The notes beneath the pieces are model-generated. The model had not been told where the DNA came from, searched no databases, and saw only the letters and a program-made list of their open reading frames with translations. DNA of 6,406 nucleotides from a virus, in IMG/VR virus record IMGVR_UViG_3300045988_007202, positions 1 to 6,406 of that record. One strand, given 5' to 3'. Every line of letters begins with the position of its first letter. The stretch's first letter is position 1. Below, one piece after another: positions 1,497 to 6,406 of this stretch. The position numbers were made by a program, and so were the translations under genes.

Positions 1497-1994
1497 ATGA
1501 AAGAAGATATTGTTAAAGGTTTCGCGAAATATTCGCTTAATCGTTCTAATCAATTACATGAATGTTCTTGTCACGGTGTTCATTGTGCCGCTGTTGCTCT
1601 TTCTGGTGTATTACGTGAACAATCTCCGGTTGAGGATTTCCTCTTTGATAAAAATTTTGATGGTTCGCTTACGTTTGTTAGTGACTATGGTATTATCGCT
1701 GGTCAAACTGCGATTGATCAGATGAACTCGACGCAACTACGTCGTTATTTAAACGGTTTACGTCCTTCTTCTTCTCCTTATACTCGCCATTATGACGATA
1801 AGTTTCTTTTAGAGTATTGTAAGGATCGTAATATTCAGTCGTATACCGAAATGCAAGCTTGGCTTGAACATTTGATTTCAGAAGGTCAGTCTCTTGAAGG
1901 CGATGTTGCTGCTTATCAGGCTGCTGAGTTGGCTAAACAACAACAGCAACAGCAACAGCAACAACAACAATCTGCCCCGTCTTCTTCAGAATGA
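1497..1994 (+). CDS. Hypothetical 165-aa protein with a C-terminal Q11 tract. It sits between VP1 and VP2, so it may be an internal scaffolding-type protein; that function is not recognised from the sequence.
   Basis: The first ATG is at 1497 (the track ORF begins at TTG 1491). Codon bias is T-ending, like the neighbouring genes. Its stop TGA 1992-1994 overlaps the VP2 ATG 1991 as ATGA. Confidence 0.7.
   Translation: MKEDIVKGFAKYSLNRSNQLHECSCHGVHCAAVALSGVLREQSPVEDFLFDKNFDGSLTFVSDYGIIAGQTAIDQMNSTQLRRYLNGLRPSSSPYTRHYDDKFLLEYCKDRNIQSYTEMQAWLEHLISEGQSLEGDVAAYQAAELAKQQQQQQQQQQQSAPSSSE
1938..1970 (+). repeat. CAA/CAG trinucleotide repeat encoding 11 consecutive glutamines.
   Basis: The codons CAA CAA CAG CAA CAG CAA CAG CAA CAA CAA CAA are in frame with ORF 1497..1994. 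Confidence 0.95.
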
Positions 1995-3088
1995 TAGGTG
2001 CTGCTATTGGTGCCGCTGGTTCATTGGCCAGCGGTGTTGTTAATGCTATTGGAAATAATCGTCAGGGTTCTAAAAACAGGAAACATCAGCTTCAGATGCA
2101 AAAGATCCAGAACGAATGGGCAAGTTCTGAATCGCAAAAATCTCGTGATTTTGCTAAGTCTATGTTTGACGCTTCTAATGAATGGAACTCCGCTAAAAGT
2201 CAGCGTGCACGATTGGAGGAAGCTGGTTTAAACCCCTATTTAATGATGAATGGTGGTAATGCTGGTACGGCTCAGTCTACTTCTGCTCAGTCTGTTTCTG
2301 GTTCTTCTGGTTCAGGCGGTGCGCCTTATCAGTATACGCCTACTAATGTGATTGGTGATGTTGCTTCTTTTTCTGGTGCAATGAGGTCTCTTTCTGAAGC
2401 TCGTAAGTTTGGTACTGAAGCTGATTTACTTGATCGGTATGGTGATTCTGATTATTCTTCTCGTATTGCGAATACTGAGGCTGACACTTTTTTTAAACAA
2501 CGTCAATCTGATGTTGCTACTGCTCAGCGAGCTAATTTGCTTTTGTCTGCCGATGCACAAGAAGTTATGAATTCTTATCTTCCTCAGGAGAAACAGATCC
2601 AGCTTTCTACGCTTGGCTCTCAATATTGGAATCTTATCCGTGATGGTTCAATTAAAGAAGAACAGGCTAAAAATCTTCTTGCTACTCGTTTAGAGATTGA
2701 AGCCCGTACGGCTGGTCAACATATTTCTAATAAGGTTGCTCGTTCAACGGCTGATAGTATTATTGATGCTACTAATACTGCTAAGATGAATGAAGCTGCT
2801 TATAATCGAGGTTATTCTCAATTTTCTAATGATGTTGGTTATCGTACAGGTAAGATGGACCGTTGGTCTCAGGATCCTGTGAAGGCTCGCTGGGATAGAG
2901 GTATTAATAATGCTGGTAAGTTTATCGATGGTCTTTCTAATATCGTTGGTTCTGTTACTAGGTTTGGTTTCTTAAAGAATGCTAGGAATTCGTTAAAAGA
3001 ATCTAAACGTCAATTTGATCGAGGTACTGTTGACATCTTCGACGATAATAGAGGTTATTCTTGGACGCGTCAACATCGCGGACGTTAG
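1991..3088 (+). CDS. VP2: VP2 minor capsid / DNA pilot protein (functional analogue of phiX174 H), 365 aa.
   Basis: The N-terminus is Gly/Ala-rich and hydrophobic (MIGAAIGAAGSLASGVVNAIG). The motif RLEEAGLNPYLMM is typical of microvirus VP2 proteins. There is a Ser/Gly linker and a coiled-coil-like Q/A/E-rich centre. The start is coupled to the upstream stop as ATGA. Confidence 0.85.
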   Translation: MIGAAIGAAGSLASGVVNAIGNNRQGSKNRKHQLQMQKIQNEWASSESQKSRDFAKSMFDASNEWNSAKSQRARLEEAGLNPYLMMNGGNAGTAQSTSAQSVSGSSGSGGAPYQYTPTNVIGDVASFSGAMRSLSEARKFGTEADLLDRYGDSDYSSRIANTEADTFFKQRQSDVATAQRANLLLSADAQEVMNSYLPQEKQIQLSTLGSQYWNLIRDGSIKEEQAKNLLATRLEIEARTAGQHISNKVARSTADSIIDATNTAKMNEAAYNRGYSQFSNDVGYRTGKMDRWSQDPVKARWDRGINNAGKFIDGLSNIVGSVTRFGFLKNARNSLKESKRQFDRGTVDIFDDNRGYSWTRQHRGR

Positions 3089-3112
3089 TTGTCTTTAGTT
3101 TTTACTCCTTTC

Positions 3113-3146
3113 AAGGGATTGGCTTTAATTAGTCAGTCCCTTTTTT
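3113..3146 (+). terminator. Intrinsic-terminator-like hairpin plus T tract, 25 nt after the VP2 stop.
   Basis: AAGGGATTGGCT (3113-3124) pairs with AGTCAGTCCCTT (3131-3142). This gives 12 bp including 2 G-T/U wobbles, with the loop TTAATT. The T run 3141-3146 follows the stem. Confidence 0.55.
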
Positions 3147-3219
3147 GTATGGCCCTCCTGCTTCACTGCACTTCCTATCCCCTTCTATCTGTCCAGCCCA
3201 GCTGGGGGGCCCCTCTGGG

Positions 3220-3234
3220 GGGAGCAAGGCTCCC
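3220..3234 (+). other. Hairpin GGGAGC-AAG-GCTCCC (6-bp stem, triloop).
   Basis: Perfect inverted repeat read directly from the sequence. Confidence 0.55.
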
Positions 3235-3283
3235 TAAATCTCTATGTCGAGCGGTAGCGAAGAATGAAAAAAACGTCGGCTGT

Positions 3284-3302
3284 CCACGGGCCGAAGCCGT
3301 GG
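3284..3302 (+). other. Hairpin CCACGG-GCCGAAG-CCGTGG, a 6-bp GC-rich stem whose loop contains CGAAG.
   Basis: Perfect 6-bp inverted repeat. On the complementary strand the same element reads as a C(UUCG)G-type loop. Confidence 0.55.
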
Positions 3303-3320
3303 TCCCCCGGAAGGGTCTTA

Positions 3321-3327
3321 GCGAAGC
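3321..3327 (+). other. Exact GCGAAGC mini-hairpin heptamer, copy 1.
   Basis: Exact match to the d(GCGAAGC) sequence known to form an unusually stable GAA-loop DNA mini-hairpin. Confidence 0.5.
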
Positions 3328-3359
3328 GTTGATCTGCATAGTTTATAATTTTTATTGGT

Positions 3360-3414
3360 ACGAAGTTCTTAGACTTTCGTGCGAAGCAAACCGGATTAAT
3401 TGTAATCTCCGGTT
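3360..3414 (+). other. Cluster of three adjacent hairpins upstream of the rep gene: 3360-3380, the GCGAAGC mini-hairpin 3381-3387, and 3389-3414 with an AT-rich loop.
   Basis: ACGAA (3360-3364) pairs with TTCGT (3376-3380) and the stem can extend. GCGAAGC at 3381-3387 is exact. AACCGGA (3389-3395) pairs with TCCGGTT (3408-3414). Alternatively AACCG/CGGTT plus GATTA/TAATC form a 10-bp stem with a 2-nt bulge and an ATTG loop. Confidence 0.6.
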
Positions 3415-3487
3415 CAAACTCCCTTGTTCACGATTGGCGAAAGTCACATGACTATATAAAGGTATTGTGTTATTGAAATAAAGTTAT

Positions 3488-3495
3488 TATGTTTG
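3488..3495 (+). promoter_or_regulatory. Bacteroidota-type -7 promoter element TAnnTTTG (TATGTTTG), 4 nt upstream of the VP4 ATG.
   Basis: Motif match read directly. ATTG at 3464-3467 lies 20 nt upstream as a weak -33 TTTG-like element. No Shine-Dalgarno sequence is present. Confidence 0.35.
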
Positions 3496-3499
3496 CAGC

Positions 3500-5119
3500 A
3501 TGATTAATGAACGAAGTAAAACATATGGTTCTTGTCTTCATCCTCGTGTGATAAAGAATAAATATACCGGTGACCCTGTATATGTTCCTTGTGGCACTTG
3601 TGAATTTTGTATCCATAATCGTGCTGTTAAGTCAGAACTTAAATGTAATGTTCAGCTTGCTGCTTCTAAGCATTGCATGTTTGTTACGCTTACTTATTCT
3701 ACTGAGTATTTGCCCGTAGGTAAGTTTTATAAAGGTCCTGCTGGCGAGGTTCGTTTTCGTTCATTACCTCGTGATTTTGTTTATTCATATAAAACTGTTC
3801 AAGGTTATTTACGTAATATATCGTTTAATGATGAGACTTTTGATTTTTCTACTCAATTGTCTTGGGAGTCTGCACGATTATTGCAAGAAAAGACACATTT
3901 ACATTATACTGCTTTTCCTGACGGTCGGCGTGTTTATAATCGACCTTATATGAAAGGTCTTATTGGTTATCTTAACTATCGTGATCTACAGCTTTTTCTT
4001 AAACGTTTAAATCAAAATATAAGGAGTATTACAAATGAAAAGATTCACTACTACGTTACAGGAGAATATGGACCAGCAACTTTCCGTCCGCATTTCCATC
4101 TCTTATTTTTCTTCGACTCGGACAGGCTCGAACAAAGTTTTGGACAGCTTGTTTCTAAGAGCTGGCGATTTGGTGATTCAGATACGCAATCTGTCTGGTC
4201 TTCCGCTTCATGCTACGTTGCGGGATATGTTAATAGTACTGCGTGCCTTCCCGACTTTTTTAAGAATTCTCGGCATATTAAGCCGTTCGGGCGCTTTTCT
4301 GTCCATTTTGCGGAATCCCCTTTTGACGAGATCTTTAAACCGGAAGAAGATGCGGCGTTATTCTCTTTATTCTATGCTGGTCGATTCCTCGATCTTGGTG
4401 GAAAGCCTACGGCGGTCAAACCTAAGAGGTCGCATATCAATCGATTATACCCCCGACTTAATAAGTCTAAGCATGCGACTGTGGATGATGATATACGAGT
4501 TGCTTCAGTTATATCAAAGCTCCCCCAAGTCCTTGCAAAGTTTGGCTTCATTGACGAAGTGAGTAATTTTGAGCTTTCGAAGCGTGTTTATTATTTAATT
4601 CGTCGATATTTGGAAGTTGATCATTCTTTGGATTATGCGCCTGAGGAGCTTCGTGTTATTTATAATGCTTGTCGTCTGTCGCTTTATATCAACTTTTCAG
4701 ATGAAAGTGGTTGCTCTGCTATTTATCGTTTATTACTTCAATATTGTAATTTGGTTAATTATTGGATAACTGCGCCTGTTGGATCTGTTGCTTTTGTTGG
4801 TCAGTTGCGTAAAGCTGTGAGGACTATTCATGCTTTTTATGATTATTTTGAACGTCGGTCTTTGCGTGATCAGCTTGTACAGGTTGAAAAGTATTCTAAT
4901 GATTCTTATGTGCGTGATAATTTATCTATATATTATTTTTACCCTTTGACTGATGTAGATATAATGAAGAAATCTTATTCAGATTTTGTGCTTGGTAGTC
5001 CTGTTCTTCGAGCCAGCTATGCTGATTACGCGGCGGATAATCGTGAACGTATCAAGCACAAGTATTTGAATGATCAGAATGCTTTATTGATTGCTGAGGT
5101 TGACAAAAAACCTATTTAA
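3500..5119 (+). CDS. VP4: VP4 rolling-circle replication initiator (HUH endonuclease, analogue of phiX174 protein A), 539 aa.
   Basis: N-terminal Cys cluster CLHP...VPCGTCEFC. RCR motif I is FVTLTY (3680-3697). The HUH motif is PHFHLLFF, with H-F-H at 4091-4099. The two-tyrosine motif YVAGYV (4214-4231) matches the YVAKYV arrangement of phiX174 A. Confidence 0.93.
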   Translation: MINERSKTYGSCLHPRVIKNKYTGDPVYVPCGTCEFCIHNRAVKSELKCNVQLAASKHCMFVTLTYSTEYLPVGKFYKGPAGEVRFRSLPRDFVYSYKTVQGYLRNISFNDETFDFSTQLSWESARLLQEKTHLHYTAFPDGRRVYNRPYMKGLIGYLNYRDLQLFLKRLNQNIRSITNEKIHYYVTGEYGPATFRPHFHLLFFFDSDRLEQSFGQLVSKSWRFGDSDTQSVWSSASCYVAGYVNSTACLPDFFKNSRHIKPFGRFSVHFAESPFDEIFKPEEDAALFSLFYAGRFLDLGGKPTAVKPKRSHINRLYPRLNKSKHATVDDDIRVASVISKLPQVLAKFGFIDEVSNFELSKRVYYLIRRYLEVDHSLDYAPEELRVIYNACRLSLYINFSDESGCSAIYRLLLQYCNLVNYWITAPVGSVAFVGQLRKAVRTIHAFYDYFERRSLRDQLVQVEKYSNDSYVRDNLSIYYFYPLTDVDIMKKSYSDFVLGSPVLRASYADYAADNRERIKHKYLNDQNALLIAEVDKKPI

Positions 5120-5269: not shown

Positions 5270-5674
5270 ATGTATAAGCCTAAGTATTTTTCTCTGTTGG
5301 AACTTATTGATACAAGTCATACGGTTCTTCAGAATAATGTTCCTTCTTGGTGTTCTTTGGAAAACCTCCTTTCTTTGTGTGAAAAGGTTCTTGATCCTTT
5401 GCGTGAGGCCTATGGTAAGCCTTTATTTGTAAATTCAGGTTATCGTTCTAGTTTTGTGAATAAATCTGTCGGTGGTGTTTCCATTTCTCAGCATTTGGTA
5501 GGTTGTGCTGCTGACATTTCTGTTTCTTCTGATTGTTCGCTGCCTGCGTTGTTTGATCTTGTTCAGGAGTTACACTTGCCTTTTGATCAGCTTATTTATT
5601 ATAAGGTTCGGAATTTTATTCATATTTCGTGGTCTCCTTACCCGCGGTCTCAGGTTATTGTTAGAAATGCTTAA
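5270..5674 (+). CDS. Peptidase M15 family zinc peptidoglycan hydrolase (VanY / D-Ala-D-Ala carboxypeptidase fold, Peptidase_M15_3-like), 134 aa. Probable endolysin.
   Basis: It carries the SGYRS...N..VGG..SQH......AADI block, with H75-x6-D82 (CAT 5492-5494, GAC 5513-5515). The third zinc ligand is in FIHISW (CAT 5621-5623). This is the canonical H-x6-D...H signature of the family. Confidence 0.85.
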   Translation: MYKPKYFSLLELIDTSHTVLQNNVPSWCSLENLLSLCEKVLDPLREAYGKPLFVNSGYRSSFVNKSVGGVSISQHLVGCAADISVSSDCSLPALFDLVQELHLPFDQLIYYKVRNFIHISWSPYPRSQVIVRNA

Positions 5675-5882
5675 TTTTGATGTCGGTTCTTTTCCGTCTA
5701 TTCATAATGATATAGTAGACGGGATACCTGAAAATTATGTTTGTTATTATAAAAAGTATTTGTATGAAATTGAATTTATCCGTTTTAAAAAAAGTGATTC
5801 TGTTTATTTACGACATTATAACGTTTCTGCTACAGAGAAAGAAAAACAATTAGTTATTAATTTTAAATTTGATGGAAAATGA
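5667..5882 (+). CDS. Hypothetical 71-aa protein (MLNFDVGSFPSIHNDIVDGIPENYVCYYKKYLYEIEFIRFKKSDSVYLRHYNVSATEKEKQLVINFKFDGK).
   Basis: ATG 5667 overlaps the peptidase stop by 8 nt. Its stop TGA 5880-5882 overlaps the VP1 ATG 5879 as ATGA. The part of track ORF 5505..5882 upstream of this ATG looks like a frame artefact. Confidence 0.5.
   Translation: MLNFDVGSFPSIHNDIVDGIPENYVCYYKKYLYEIEFIRFKKSDSVYLRHYNVSATEKEKQLVINFKFDGK
5864..5871 (+). promoter_or_regulatory. TAnnTTTG motif (TAAATTTG), 7 nt upstream of the VP1 ATG.
   Basis: Motif read directly. Together with the hairpin at 3113-3146 it would define a transcription unit covering VP1, the 165-aa ORF and VP2. Confidence 0.3.
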
Positions 5883-6406
5883 GTAGTTTATTTTCGTATG
5901 GAGATATTAAGAATTCTCCCCGTCGCTCTGGTTTCGATTTATCGAACAAATGTGCATTTACAGCTAAGGTAGGTGAGTTACTTCCTGTCTTTTGGAAGTT
6001 TTGTTTACCTGGTGATAATTTTAATATTTCTCAGGAGTGGTTTACCCGTACGCAGCCTGTGGATACTTCTGCTTTTACTCGCTTGCGTGAGTACTATGAA
6101 TGGTTCTTTGTGCCATTGCATTTGCTTTATCGTAACAGTAACGAGGCTATTATGTCTATGGAGAACCAGCCTAACTATGCTGCTTCTGGCTCTTCTTCAA
6201 TTAGTTTTAATCGGAATTTGCCTTGGGTAGATTTGTCGACTATAAACACTGCTATTGGTAATGTTCAATCTTCTACTTCGCCACTTAATTTTTTTGGTAT
6301 TTCTCGTTCTGAAGGTTTTAAAAAACTTGTTAGTTATTTGGGATATGGTGAAACTTCGCCTGAAAAGTATGTTGACAATCTTCGTTGTAGTGCTTTCCCC
6401 CTTTAC
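5879..6406 (+). CDS. VP1: Major capsid protein VP1, N-terminal 176 codons. It runs off the window end and continues at base 120 of the window through the circular junction.
   Basis: Hand translation gives MSSLFSYGDIKNSPRRSGFDLSNKCAFTAKVGELLPVFWKFCLPGDNFNISQEWFTRTQPVDTSAFTRLREYYEWFFVPLHLLY... This shows the microvirus capsid N-terminal pattern R.FDLS...G.L.P....LPGD...FFVP. There is no stop before the window end. The ORF is missing from the track because it is open-ended. Confidence 0.93.
   Translation, partial: MSSLFSYGDIKNSPRRSGFDLSNKCAFTAKVGELLPVFWKFCLPGDNFNISQEWFTRTQPVDTSAFTRLREYYEWFFVPLHLLYRNSNEAIMSMENQPNYAASGSSSISFNRNLPWVDLSTINTAIGNVQSSTSPLNFFGISRSEGFKKLVSYLGYGETSPEKYVDNLRCSAFPLY
6288..6406. 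repeat. Terminal redundancy: copy 2 of the exact 119-nt direct repeat, identical to 1..119.
   Basis: Direct comparison with bases 1-119. Confidence 0.95.

Follow-up and report, generated by a model that had tools for sequence, protein, structure and literature searches.

The DNA analysed here (the window, 6,406 nt) is a complete circular microvirus genome with 82% (81.6%) identity to Bacteroides phage phiHBP1. The pilot gene VP2 ends with its stop codon at 3088 and the Rep gene starts with its ATG at 3500, leaving a gap of 411 nt that holds a cluster of CGAAG motifs. At the upstream edge of this untranslated gap, just past the VP2 stop, a terminator scan picked up a terminator-like hairpin with a T-run (3113..3148, + strand), the stem of which covaries in the relative L003. 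A hairpin of this kind ended within 100 nt upstream of the conserved core (described below) in 34 of 67 related genomes, at a density of 5.1 per kb upstream of the core versus 0.53 per kb genome-wide. On the Rep side, the sequence TAtgTTTG (3488..3495, + strand), 5 nt ahead of the ATG, corresponds to the Bacteroidota -7 promoter box. In 70 genomes, TAnnTTTG was found within 76 nt past the core end in 39, with a density there of 4.3-7.4 per kb versus 0.68 per kb genome-wide, and only one occurrence fell in the 300 nt preceding the core end; both the terminator and the promoter calls are consensus matches only.

Flanked by these two signals is a conserved non-coding structured element (3150..3456, + strand), composed of an upstream domain and a three-way-junction core. 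In phiHBP1, whose host is B. fragilis, the element is 92% identical to that of the window (81.6% for the genome as a whole) and the core 97% identical. The window was scanned for tRNA and tmRNA genes, of which there were none, and against Rfam (E up to 5), which gave no match in the gap and two chance matches elsewhere; a scan of four related loci at the gathering scores of Rfam 15 also gave no match. An open reading frame at 3089-3451, which corresponds to a CDS of phiHBP1 (XTK89949.1), was rejected as protein-coding because the frame is not conserved among relatives. The longest stop-free frame was shorter or frame-shifting in 10 of 16 relatives, and in L139 and L140 each of the three frames is interrupted by 5-7 stops. 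Over the same region the amino-acid identity (64%) is lower than the nucleotide identity (92%), the element contains 1-nt indels, and searches of the frame against Pfam and PHROG gave no match. The 'hypothetical protein' annotation in phiHBP1 and similar genomes is probably spurious.

Six motifs in the gap had been singled out in an initial, sequence-only reading, and their positions were confirmed by counting: CGAAG at 3258, 3292, 3322, 3361 and 3382, and CGAAAG at 3438 (motifs 1 to 6). That reading had estimated about five further copies of CGAAG; there are exactly five (698, 878, 3512, 4555 and 4578), and five copies in ~190 nt versus five in ~6.2 kb give a local enrichment of ~33-fold, close to the ~30-fold first put forward. 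The two exact copies of GCGAAGC (3321 and 3381) occur nowhere else in the genome, from which the reverse complement GCTTCGC is absent. The density also withstood comparison with a null model, since dinucleotide-preserving shuffles of the whole genome or of the local region are expected to hold 0.4-0.6 motifs. Six motifs were reached in none of 5000 local dinucleotide shuffles, and none of 2000 whole-genome shuffles had six in any 190-nt window. When the post hoc choice of the 5-mer was corrected for by scanning all 5-mers, an equally extreme cluster arose in ~10% of Markov simulations, and CGAAG was the second most clustered 5-mer of the genome, behind a coding CAACA repeat. The cluster statistic of this single genome is by itself suggestive rather than decisive, and the case for a putative signal is made by the comparative evidence. 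Mini-hairpins of the form N-C-G(N)NA-G-N' were counted in 76 genomes, with 9.4 per kb on the + strand of the element, versus 1.0 per kb on the remainder of that strand and 1.45 per kb when the element was read on the - strand. In the window, G-N-A or G-N-N-A loops closed by two G-C pairs are present at 3321 and 3381 (GCGAAGC) and at 3251 (GCGGTAGC), and looser N-C-GNA-G-N' variants at 3360 and 3307.

A covariance model of the core was built from 16 close relatives and used to search viral contigs fetched by Rep similarity (Rep identity 28-35% in most). The core was found on the Rep strand in 64 of these 75 microvirus loci, typically a few hundred nt upstream of Rep or wrapping round the circular contig. 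It was also found in four provirus-like loci from Prevotella, Paraprevotella, Muribaculaceae and unclassified-bacterium assemblies (mostly metagenome bins), the bacterial-genome loci having been obtained by a Rep-profile scan. All 84 model matches below E = 0.01 were on the Rep-encoding strand, and each genome examined had the element ahead of its Rep transcription unit. A 14-base exact pattern listed 86 loci among viral contigs; blastn with the gap matched three (L043, L079 and L082), all already found via Rep, and an exact 27-base pattern of the majority clade had zero matches in bacterial genomes. As judged from these matches, the element is conserved across a large group of Bacteroidota microviruses, and the comparison with ~85 relatives upholds the earlier suggestion that the packaged strand carries a conserved non-coding signal specific to that strand.

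The core consists of a 2-bp mini-hairpin (P0) followed by a three-way junction (P1, P2 and P3). In 83 distinct sequences, 99.9% of the 1602 pair cells of P1, P2 and P3 were standard pairs, a percentage inflated by the fitting of this large alignment to the covariance model. Sixteen of the 20 pairs were changed on both sides, with 364 such cells versus 106 in shuffles, and in a shifted pairing register the pairing of the core dropped to 22-42%. P1 is an 8-bp helix of a 5' strand (GACTTTCG, 3372..3379) and a 3' strand (CGAAAGTC, 3438..3445), with five of eight pairs changed on both sides and 99.7% of cells paired. Motif 6, which had been taken for a near-miss mini-hairpin, is instead the 3' strand of this covarying helix, and is replaced by CAAAAGTG, CGCAAATG or CGCAAGTG together with matching changes in the 5' strand. 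P2 (3380..3388) is a 3-bp mini-hairpin, TGC-GAA-GCA, that holds motif 5 and its GCGAAGC. Its closing C-G pair was invariant (83/83 sequences), and the other two pairs covaried (UA 67, CG 16; CG 40, GC 40, AU 3). The P2 loop was mostly GAA, sometimes GGA, GTA or a 4-nt G-N-A-N, and CCGAAGG is a common form of the hairpin. P3 (3389..3414) is a 7-bp hairpin (3389-3395 with 3408-3414) with a 12-nt loop; all seven pairs were changed on both sides, 100% of cells were paired in the 83 sequences, and the loop sequence is clade-specific. The strand joining P3 to P1 (J3/1, 3415..3437) is unpaired and pyrimidine-rich, carries a conserved CTTGT(T/C) or CTCGTC, and is conserved in length (22-26 nt) and composition across clades. 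Directly 3' of P1 there is a conserved ACA(T/C) (3446..3449); most of the 83 sequences have (G/C)ACA(C/T) after P1, and a few differ in the last base or add CA.

P0 (AC-GAA-GT, 3360..3366) contains motif 4 and is found family-wide. Its outer pair was GC in 55 sequences, AU in 23 and UA in 1, its closing pair CG in 76 and UA in 3, and its loop GAA, GTA or GGA. Most relatives have GCGAAGC, GCGGAGC or GCGTAGC at this place, and the consensus of the largest clade is the exact heptamer GCGAAGC. Across 83 sequences, P0 and P2 retained a G-N-A loop while their stems covaried, a pattern of selective maintenance. On this comparison, motifs 4 and 5 are family-wide conserved GNA-triloop mini-hairpins with covarying stems in ~85 phages. 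Motif by motif, the earlier reading was borne out in part only. A switch pairing of ACGAAG (3360-3365) with CTTTCGT (3374-3380) was rejected, as CGTAG variants break it without compensation, and so was a hammerhead-like three-way junction, which lacks a CUGANGA core and an Rfam match.

P1, P2 and P3 were recovered independently by RNAalifold and by a DNA minimum-energy fold. P0 was not predicted by nearest-neighbour folding, a model that does not include the stability of sheared G·A pairs. Single-sequence folding of the whole gap was close to that of shuffles (z = -1.1 for DNA and -1.3 for RNA; z = -1.9 for the core alone), and folding energy alone would therefore have missed the element.

L139 and L140, with a Rep that is only 34% identical, share 82-85% identity with the window over the upstream domain. 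This domain contains a hairpin, H_a (GGGAGC-AAG-GCTCCC, 3220..3234), with a stem that is invariant in 15 sequences and a loop of variable length, replaced in relatives by AGGCAC or TCGCAG (containing G-GCA-C or C-GCA-G). H_b (GC-GGTA-GC, 3251..3258), an exact GCGNNAGC, is a mini-hairpin whose stem covaries between GC/GC, GAC/GTC, GCAC/GTGC and GACC/GGTC, with GGTA or GGGA as the loop. Motif 1, which is not itself conserved, is the 3' flank of H_b. It is followed by an invariant unpaired tract (ATGAAAAAAACGTC, 3264..3277), identical in 16 of the 19 sequences of alignment A8, L139 and L140 included; the remaining three (L163, L172 and L206) have a different, non-aligning upstream domain. The hairpin with the inverted repeat CCACGG/CCGTGG that had been described for motif 2 was confirmed (H_c, 3284..3302; stem 3284-3289 with 3297-3302, loop GCCGAAG). 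The H_c stem covaries to AGTCGG/CCGACT and AGCCGG/CCGGCT, and motif 2 is part of a real hairpin loop, the sequence of which is variable (GCCGNAG or GCGGNAG). The CGGC at 3277..3280 is a candidate pseudoknot or alternative partner of the GCCG (3290-3293) in the H_c loop. G3278 and C3292 change together (to C and G) in phiHBP1, L137, L139 and L140, and no mixed states were seen among 15 sequences; 3277-3280 may thus pair with 3290-3293.

Further downstream, the mini-hairpin H_d (CCC-GGAA-GGG, 3306..3315) has the counterparts CTC-GGA-GAG, CTC-GGGA-GAG and GCC-GGA-GGC at the matching place in relatives. Motif 3 is present as the mini-hairpin GCGAAGC (3321..3327), and is a lineage-specific, swappable module (type A) rather than a fixed part of the element. 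Type A was found in the window, phiHBP1, L002, L003, L132, L134, L137, L146 and L126, and is missing from some close relatives, another module taking its place in L043, L006, L135, L125, L147 and L148. Two other structures were discarded: a long-range pairing of 3211-3231 with 3295-3315 (repeat I1), which is lost in relatives, and a G-quadruplex formed from two G6 runs, for which the G-tracts are too few.

We regard a complementary-strand (minus-strand) origin, comparable to G4 oric, as the best reading of the element by analogy, and give it a probability of about 0.5. First-strand copying in microviruses is known largely from coliphages. The element is non-coding, orientation-specific and located on the packaged strand, with conserved intrastrand structure, which are properties of complementary-strand origins. 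The reading is suggested by precedents, namely the mini-hairpins of G4, phiX174 and RSF1010 ssiA and the hairpins upstream of Rep in other phages. The occurrence of such mini-hairpins in the two coliphage origins had been pointed out in the earlier reading and was verified: GCGAAAGC is at 3977-3984 of G4, inside the annotated primer site (3970-3997) of the complementary-strand origin, and GCGAAGC is at 2358 of phiX174, in the F-G intergenic region, in agreement with a review (PMC13037366).

The primase-dependent oric of G4 (and of its relatives St-1 and alpha3) is, like the element, non-coding, built of hairpins and on the packaged + strand. In G4 the mini-hairpin at the primer site is of the GCGNNAGC type, and a role in the exclusion of SSB is proposed for both. 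The G4 origin, with three hairpins in ~140 nt between F and G, has no sequence or model similarity to the element. The latter spans ~300 nt, combines five to seven G-N-A or G-N-N-A mini-hairpins with a three-way junction, and is found in Bacteroidota phages, between VP2 and Rep. A search of G4 and phiX174 with covariance model R1 found nothing (best 10.4 bits, E = 1). Homology to a G4-type oric (three hairpins and a CTG start 3' of hairpin I) was rejected, as there is no R1 match and the architecture differs. As proposed for the element, the n' site of phiX174 is a folded region of the + strand that starts complementary-strand synthesis, and GCGAAGC is present in the F-G intergenic region around it. 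It differs from the element in consisting of one hairpin region, which E. coli PriA recognises, and no homology between the two was detected; Bacteroidota are not known to have the E. coli partners PriB, PriC and DnaT. The F-G intergenic region of phiX174 holds the complementary-strand origin (PMC9865509).

The mini-hairpins d(GCGNAGC) and d(GCGNNAGC) of Hirao and colleagues, which as DNA have a sheared G·A pair and an exceptional resistance to heat and nucleases, have exact matches in the window. The mini-hairpins of the element also differ from that type, in having many other closing pairs (AC/GT, CC/GG, TCC/GGA and AT/AT) and in being embedded in a larger fold. Orientation-specific, structured, non-coding regions that prime the lagging strand on single-stranded DNA are also found in ssiA and ssiB of RSF1010 and in the sso of rolling-circle plasmids. 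RSF1010 ssiA contains CCGAAGG, and mini-hairpins are poorly bound by SSB (PMC13037366). CCGAAGG is the common P2 sequence noted above; unlike the element, ssiA is a 40-nt hairpin read by the plasmid primase RepB'. An ssoA is defined by RSB and CS-6 (TAGCGT) and primed by RNA polymerase, and an ssoA was rejected for the window because TAGCGA (3255 and 3319) lies outside any loop and has disappeared from relatives, with RSB and CS-6 not conserved. A precedent in the same place of the genome is that of the reekeekee- and roodoodooviruses, small microvirus clades in which conserved hairpins upstream of Rep were already proposed as minus-strand origins (PMC9865509). Those hairpins share with the element its position, compensatory substitutions and a tentative negative-strand assignment; they are one or two in number, simple and 13-64 nt long, they belong to a different clade, and neither a three-way junction nor mini-hairpin loops have been reported for them.

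As a minus-strand origin, 3150-3456 would act in cis by folding in the packaged single-stranded (+) DNA into a series of small G-N-A- or G-N-N-A-capped hairpins, followed by the P1/P2/P3 junction, which would keep a pyrimidine-rich strand of ~23 nt unpaired. After ejection of the DNA into the cell, the genome would be covered by host SSB, and the very stable mini-hairpins and the junction would resist melting and remain SSB-free. At this exposed landmark the first primer would be begun by the Bacteroides priming machinery. DnaG primase could act there directly, following the example of G4 oric, or a PriA-type primosome could do so, following that of the n' site of phiX174, and the single strand would then be converted to the double-stranded replicative form. 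SSB exclusion, the recruitment of primase or primosome and the priming start site are proposed steps, and J3/1 is a candidate priming template.

A broader and less probable reading is that of a combined control region, in which a structured-DNA family, equivalent for ssDNA to a family in Rfam, would be recognised through its three-dimensional fold by replication proteins of Bacteroidota and would couple minus-strand priming, Rep nicking and, in temperate relatives, an adjacent XerC/D site. This reading includes the three-way junction, the possible pseudoknot (3277-3280 with 3290-3293) and the five to seven mini-hairpins.

A structured RNA (belonging to the late operon as its 3' UTR, to the Rep operon as its leader, or acting as a small RNA on Rep expression or transcript stability) is in our view a doubtful alternative. 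The + strand has the sense of mRNA, and the structural signals are thus also present in any read-through transcript; covariation by itself is blind to RNA versus DNA, and GGAA, GGGA and GTAA (tetraloops of the G-N-R-A type) and the C(TTCG)G loop of L142 and L143 are classic RNA loops. Structured RNAs usually have several percent of wobble pairs. G·T wobbles were nearly absent from the core (~7 of 1602 pair cells, the reference level for RNA being a typical value rather than a computed control), and the variants GAAC, GAAT, GTAT and GGAT are not GNRA tetraloops. P0 is conserved and covarying with only 2 bp; such a hairpin is stable as d(GCGAAGC), and RNA versions melt far lower, with a Tm of 39 C for r(GCGAAAGC) versus ~80 C for the DNA form (PMC13037366). 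A match to an Rfam family was not obtained, and the -7 box is downstream of the element and the terminator-like hairpin upstream. From the near absence of wobbles, the 2-bp stems and the position of the terminator-like hairpin and the promoter box we infer that the element probably acts as ssDNA rather than RNA.

That the element is, in whole or in part, the viral-strand (+) origin with a binding and nicking site for Rep is unlikely. A nick in a hairpin loop upstream of rep is the arrangement of CRESS-DNA viruses and rolling-circle plasmids, and the constant position of the element upstream of the Rep transcription unit is in line with it. The P3 loop is conserved within clades and differs between Rep clades, as expected from co-evolution with Rep, and proteins could bind to the unpaired tracts that are conserved (ATGAAAAAAACGTC, and GTSACA on the 3' side of P1). 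Rep, however, nicks the double-stranded replicative form, for which five to seven mini-hairpins and a junction on one strand would be unneeded. The + origin of phiX174 is annotated inside gene A and is not known to be a hairpin, and no similarity to it was detected. The Ff phages have both origins in one intergenic region; a + origin and a minus-strand origin are not mutually exclusive.

Very unlikely is an accessory structure for XerC/D integration of the single-stranded genome at host dif, similar to the folded attP(+) of CTX-phi. Microvirus proviruses of Bacteroidota carry dif-like sites at their flanks, upstream of Rep (PMC3091885), and in the provirus L229 only ~70-90 nt separate the 3' side of the element from the crossover core TGTAAGTTATAAGAAAAATATT, which adjoins a dif-like arm of the host (ATTTAACATAA). 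All four provirus-like loci have an intact copy of the element at their right end, so that it is not the crossover site; no inverted dif-like pair was seen inside it (read by eye), and phiHBP1, in which a search for lysogeny had a negative outcome (PMC13064476), has the element conserved to the same degree. A folded attP of the CTX-phi type was rejected, as the att core of L229 is outside the intact element and no inverted dif-like pair was read within it. In a by-eye comparison, the window had no convincing match to the dif-like sites of L224 and L229 on the 3' side of the element. A mere strong or bidirectional terminator or insulator between the late and early operons is highly improbable, since, although the element is at the end of the VP1-VP2 operon and hairpin clusters can terminate transcription (PMC8355165), a separate canonical hairpin with a T-run is already present upstream, the mini-hairpins are without T-runs, and the conserved identity of the G-N-A loops, the three-way junction and the long unpaired tracts would be left unexplained.

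In the human gut, Bacteroidota microviruses rank with the most abundant phages; we know of no cis-acting replication signal or mapped origin in them. The element is a precise target defined by covariation, and its 97%-identical core in phiHBP1 provides a cultured model in B. fragilis. If a minus-strand origin is present here, the association of DNA mini-hairpins with single-strand origins that was first noticed in G4 and phiX174 would hold for distant phages with hosts of another bacterial phylum as well, and would suggest that mini-hairpins are a general means of keeping a landmark exposed on SSB-coated DNA. Should the combined control region be real, it would be the first defined minus-strand origin for the dominant human-gut microviruses and a new architecture of priming signal. 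The covariance model can serve as a marker for this group of Bacteroidota microviruses in metagenomes, and also points out the doubtful CDS annotation in phiHBP1 and similar genomes. With ~300 nt, the element is larger and more complex than G4 oric or the n' site of phiX174, and other functions, such as a Rep nick site or support of integration, are possible.

At 6406 bases, the window makes up an entire circular Microviridae genome, and all genes lie on the + strand. VP1, the major capsid gene, spans the window ends (about 5980 to 1460) and is followed by an unassigned ORF (1491-1994), the pilot gene VP2 (1991-3088), Rep (3500-5119) and an M15 peptidase gene (5270-5674). The unassigned ORF ends in a CAA/CAG-type repeat in which CAACA, the genome's most clustered 5-mer, occurs seven times within 32 nt of coding sequence (1938-1969). 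VP2 and Rep are separated by a 411-nt gap (3089-3499), and it is here that the CGAAG cluster falls. Among deposited phages the closest was Bacteroides phage phiHBP1 (PV598014), a cultured microvirus of B. fragilis (PMC13064476); 97% of the genome aligned with it, at 81.6% nucleotide identity.

The sequence-only reading had correctly placed CGAAG at 3258, 3292, 3322, 3361 and 3382 and CGAAAG at 3438 (motifs 1 to 6), and its two exact GCGAAGC heptamers, at 3321 and 3381, were confirmed as the sole copies in the window, with none on the opposite strand. Five more CGAAG were counted across the rest of the genome. The claimed enrichment held against composition, with six motifs seen and 0.4-0.6 expected from dinucleotide shuffles (global or local), and six were reached in 0/5000 local shuffles. 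When all 5-mers were scanned to correct for the post-hoc choice of motif, an equally clustered 5-mer turned up in about 10% of Markov simulations, so that the cluster as judged from a single genome is only suggestive. We consider that comparative evidence, not the single-genome statistic, settles whether it is real.

The element (3150-3456, +) was 92% identical between the window and phiHBP1, and its 3355-3456 part 97%, against 81.6% for the genome overall; single-base indels were present in the alignment of the region. A protein-coding ORF at 3089-3451 was considered and rejected: the longest stop-free frame was shorter or frame-shifting in 10 of 16 relatives, and two distant relatives carried 5-7 stops in each of the three frames. 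The window ORF and its phiHBP1 counterpart were 64% identical as 'proteins' and 92% as DNA, and searches of the Pfam and PHROG families with the ORF gave no match. The phiHBP1 paper reckons the region among the genome's proteins (PMC13064476), and the 'hypothetical protein' over it (CDS XTK89949.1, phiHBP1 3584-3994) is probably not a real gene, since relatives do not keep the frame and the translation is less conserved than the DNA. The element was kept in contigs with Rep 60%, 37% and 30-34% identical to that of the window, 3' of VP2 and 5' of Rep or of small ORFs preceding Rep. In two contigs with Rep just 34% identical (L139, 3243-3322; L140, 1612-1707), the upstream domain of the element (GCTGGGGGGCCCCTYTGGGGGGAGC..GCTCCCTAAATCTCTATG...ATGAAAAAAACGTC; window 3200-3299) was 82-85% identical, which equals the conservation of the Rep catalytic-motif region and reflects either very strong constraint or horizontal exchange.

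The 3' part of the element is a three-way-junction core of helices P1, P2 and P3. P1 pairs GACTTTCG with CGAAAGTC in the window and takes the compensatory forms CACTTTTG/CAAAAGTG, CATTTGCG/CGCAAATG and CACTTGCG/CGCAAGTG in relatives; P3 retains 6-8 pairs despite wholly different sequences. A covariance model was built from 16 close relatives, in whose alignment 100% of cells were paired and 10/20 pairs had changes on both sides. It matched the core in 64/75 microvirus loci (fetched by Rep similarity, most with 28-35% Rep identity), all on the Rep strand, and in four provirus-like loci from Prevotella, Paraprevotella, Muribaculaceae and unclassified-bacterium assemblies, mostly metagenome bins. 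Among 83 distinct sequences, in an alignment fitted to the model, standard pairs made up 99.9% of 1602 cells, and both-side changes occurred in 16/20 pairs (364 cells vs 106 ± 7 in shuffles); when the register was shifted, pairing fell to 22-42%. RNAalifold, run on a MAFFT alignment, and DNA minimum-energy folding of the window sequence each recovered P1, P2 and P3 independently. A 72-kb Paraprevotella contig (L228) has Rep-like stretches at 124-639 and from about 5868 onward, ~5.7 kb apart, with the element directly before the second; the arrangement may reflect proviruses in tandem or a partial copy.

Motif 5 (3382) forms P2, in which a GAA triloop caps a stem of 3 bp. The closing C-G of this stem was invariant (83/83) and the other two pairs covaried (TGC-GAA-GCA in the window; CGC-GAA-GCG, CCC-GAA-GGG and TCC-GAA-GGA in relatives); the loop was mostly GAA, at times GGA or GTA, or four-base G-N-A-N. 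Motif 4 (3361) corresponds to P0, which lies about 6 nt 5' of P1 and has just two stem pairs under a G-N-A triloop (GAA, GTA or GGA). Its stem covaried (GC 55, AU 23, UA 1; closing pair CG 76, UA 3), and its consensus in the largest clade is the exact heptamer GCGAAGC. Motif 2 (3292) does sit, as had been proposed, in the loop of the CCACGG/CCGTGG hairpin (H_c), whose stems covary (AGTCGG/CCGACT in L139) and whose loop reads GCCGNAG or GCGGNAG across relatives. In four sequences G3278 and C3292 were jointly replaced by C and G, and mixed states were absent; 3277-3280 (CGGC) may thus pair with 3290-3293 (GCCG, in the H_c loop), as a 4-bp pseudoknot or an alternative or competing helix.

Motif 3 (3321) is an exact GCGAAGC in a module that some close relatives swap for another. 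When window 3303-3354, 3' of H_c, was compared with the homologous stretch in six related loci (L043, L006, L125, L135, L147 and L148), two alternatives were seen: type A carries GCGAAGC, type B GCC-GGA-GGC. Their distribution departs from overall relatedness, a pattern suggestive of recombination inside the element. Two motifs had been misread: motif 6 (3438), taken for a near-miss mini-hairpin, is the 3' strand of P1, and motif 1 (3258) is unconserved and merely flanks a conserved mini-hairpin that had escaped notice, GC-GGTA-GC (3251-3258; GAC-GGGA-GTC, GCAC-GGGA-GTGC or GACC-GGTA-GGTC in relatives). Another conserved mini-hairpin, CCC-GGAA-GGG (3306-3315), is CTC-GGA-GAG or GCC-GGA-GGC in relatives. 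Mini-hairpins recurred in related phages: across 76 genomes, N-C-G(N)NA-G-N' hairpins reached 9.4 per kb on the + strand of the element (2-7 per element), 1.45 per kb on its opposite strand and 1.0 per kb elsewhere. Other clades have different upstream domains, likewise rich in mini-hairpins (e.g. GCGGAGC or GCGAAGC, GCAC-GGA-GTGC), with six in L175, one such genome.

VP2 is followed by a terminator-like hairpin and T-run (3113-3148), and a comparable hairpin ended at most 100 nt upstream of the core in 34/67 genomes (5.1 vs 0.53 per kb genome-wide). Among 70 genomes, the Bacteroidota -7 box, TAnnTTTG, was present a single time in the 300 nt leading to the core end but was enriched directly past it, within 76 nt in 39/70 (4.3-7.4 vs 0.68 per kb genome-wide); the window copy (3488-3495) lies 5 nt before the Rep ATG. 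The element thus appears to be situated between transcription units, terminator and promoter being consensus matches, not mapped transcript ends. In the window (3488-3502), L125 (2556-2569) and L183 (69-84 nt past the core end, about 2023-2038), the box stands 3-4 nt ahead of the start codon of Rep or of the first post-element ORF, and an mRNA started from it would be leaderless or nearly so.

Any microvirus requires a place on the incoming + strand for the host's first primer, and we know of none in this microvirus group. From the mini-hairpins common to G4, phiX174 and ssiA, we propose, with a probability of about 0.5, that the element is a minus-strand origin. The mini-hairpins and junction would persist through SSB coating by excluding SSB, and the unpaired, pyrimidine-rich J3/1 strand between P3 and P1 (3415-3437; conserved CTTGT or CTCGTC) would be offered to primase or a PriA-type primosome; the conserved ACA(T/C) immediately 3' of P1 may be an alternative start site. 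The mini-hairpins noted for the G4 and phiX174 origin regions were found in both phage records. In G4, GCGAAAGC (3977-3984) falls in hairpin I and within the annotated primer (3970-3997), the complementary-strand origin being annotated at 3998; in phiX174 the F-G gap, which contains a primosome-recognised hairpin (PMC9865509), carries GCGAAGC at 2358. SSB is reported to bind mini-hairpins poorly, and RSF1010 ssiA to contain CCGAAGG (PMC13037366), which is a frequent P2 sequence in the element family. A CCGAAGG mini-hairpin is also present in phiX174 at 4333-4339, inside gene A, 27 nt to the 3' side of the viral-strand origin annotated at 4306.

The sequence-only reading had suggested that the cluster is an ssDNA-level signal rather than a protein-coding or RNA feature. 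Conservation, strand specificity and the non-coding character stood; covariation cannot separate DNA from RNA, because the + strand is both the packaged and the mRNA-sense strand. The element probably acts as DNA. G·T wobbles are nearly absent (about 7 in 1602 cells, vs 364 double changes), and structured RNAs usually tolerate several percent G·U. DNA is also favoured by the conserved 2-bp P0, a form far more stable as DNA, with d(GCGAAGC) and d(GCGAAAGC) melting near 76-82 C and r(GCGAAAGC) at 39 C (PMC13037366); by the four-base loops GAAC, GAAT, GTAT and GGAT, which are non-GNRA; and by the inter-operon position and an Rfam search with the element that gave zero matches. Against DNA stand GGAA, GGGA and GTAA and, in one clade, C(TTCG)G, all of which resemble RNA loops. 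On the whole, a structured RNA element is unlikely.

A nicking origin for Rep would agree with the invariable position upstream of Rep and the clade-specific P3 loop, but the replicative form can be nicked without any one-strand fold, and we regard it as rather doubtful; the two functions could coexist, as they do in the Ff intergenic region. An accessory role in XerC/D integration is improbable: proviruses of this group are bordered by dif-like sites (PMC3091885), and in the Muribaculaceae provirus L229 a repeated core, TGTAAGTTATAAGAAAAATATT, lies ~70-90 nt 3' of the element, adjoining the host ATTTAACATAA arm, but the element is intact in provirus-like loci and equally conserved in phiHBP1, where lysogeny was sought and not found (PMC13064476). 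At the L229 junctions (7107-7140 and 13745-13801), TGTAAGTTATAAGAAAAATATT forms a 22-nt direct repeat; the dif-like ATTTAACATAA arm lies on the host side, and the phage side carries TCATGTTAAAT twice in direct orientation. The structured element occupies the right end of this provirus, which measures ~6.66 kb. That the element is a plain terminator cluster is highly improbable.

As regards a minus-strand origin, structured examples with mini-hairpins are established in G4, phiX174 and ssiA, and for other microvirus clades, simple hairpins lying 5' of Rep were previously proposed as such (PMC9865509). No description of the present element was found in Rfam, the phiHBP1 paper, papers on Bacteroidota microviruses and proviruses, or full-text literature searches. 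New are the strength of the covariation, the phage group and host phylum, and the architecture, which combines a three-way junction with five to seven mini-hairpins and a possible pseudoknot.

A second non-coding gap, from the peptidase gene to VP1 (5675-5979), is AT-rich (GC down to 0.24) and 92% identical with phiHBP1, and its last ~90 nt can still be recognised in distant relatives. This gap is a candidate for a late promoter or viral-strand origin. In a 9602-nt contig (L142), an opposite-strand VapE-like gene abuts and overlaps the VP2 end (5723-6575) and a VP2-like C-terminus recurs at 1-309, an arrangement compatible with an integrated copy, with a concatemer or with chimeric assembly.
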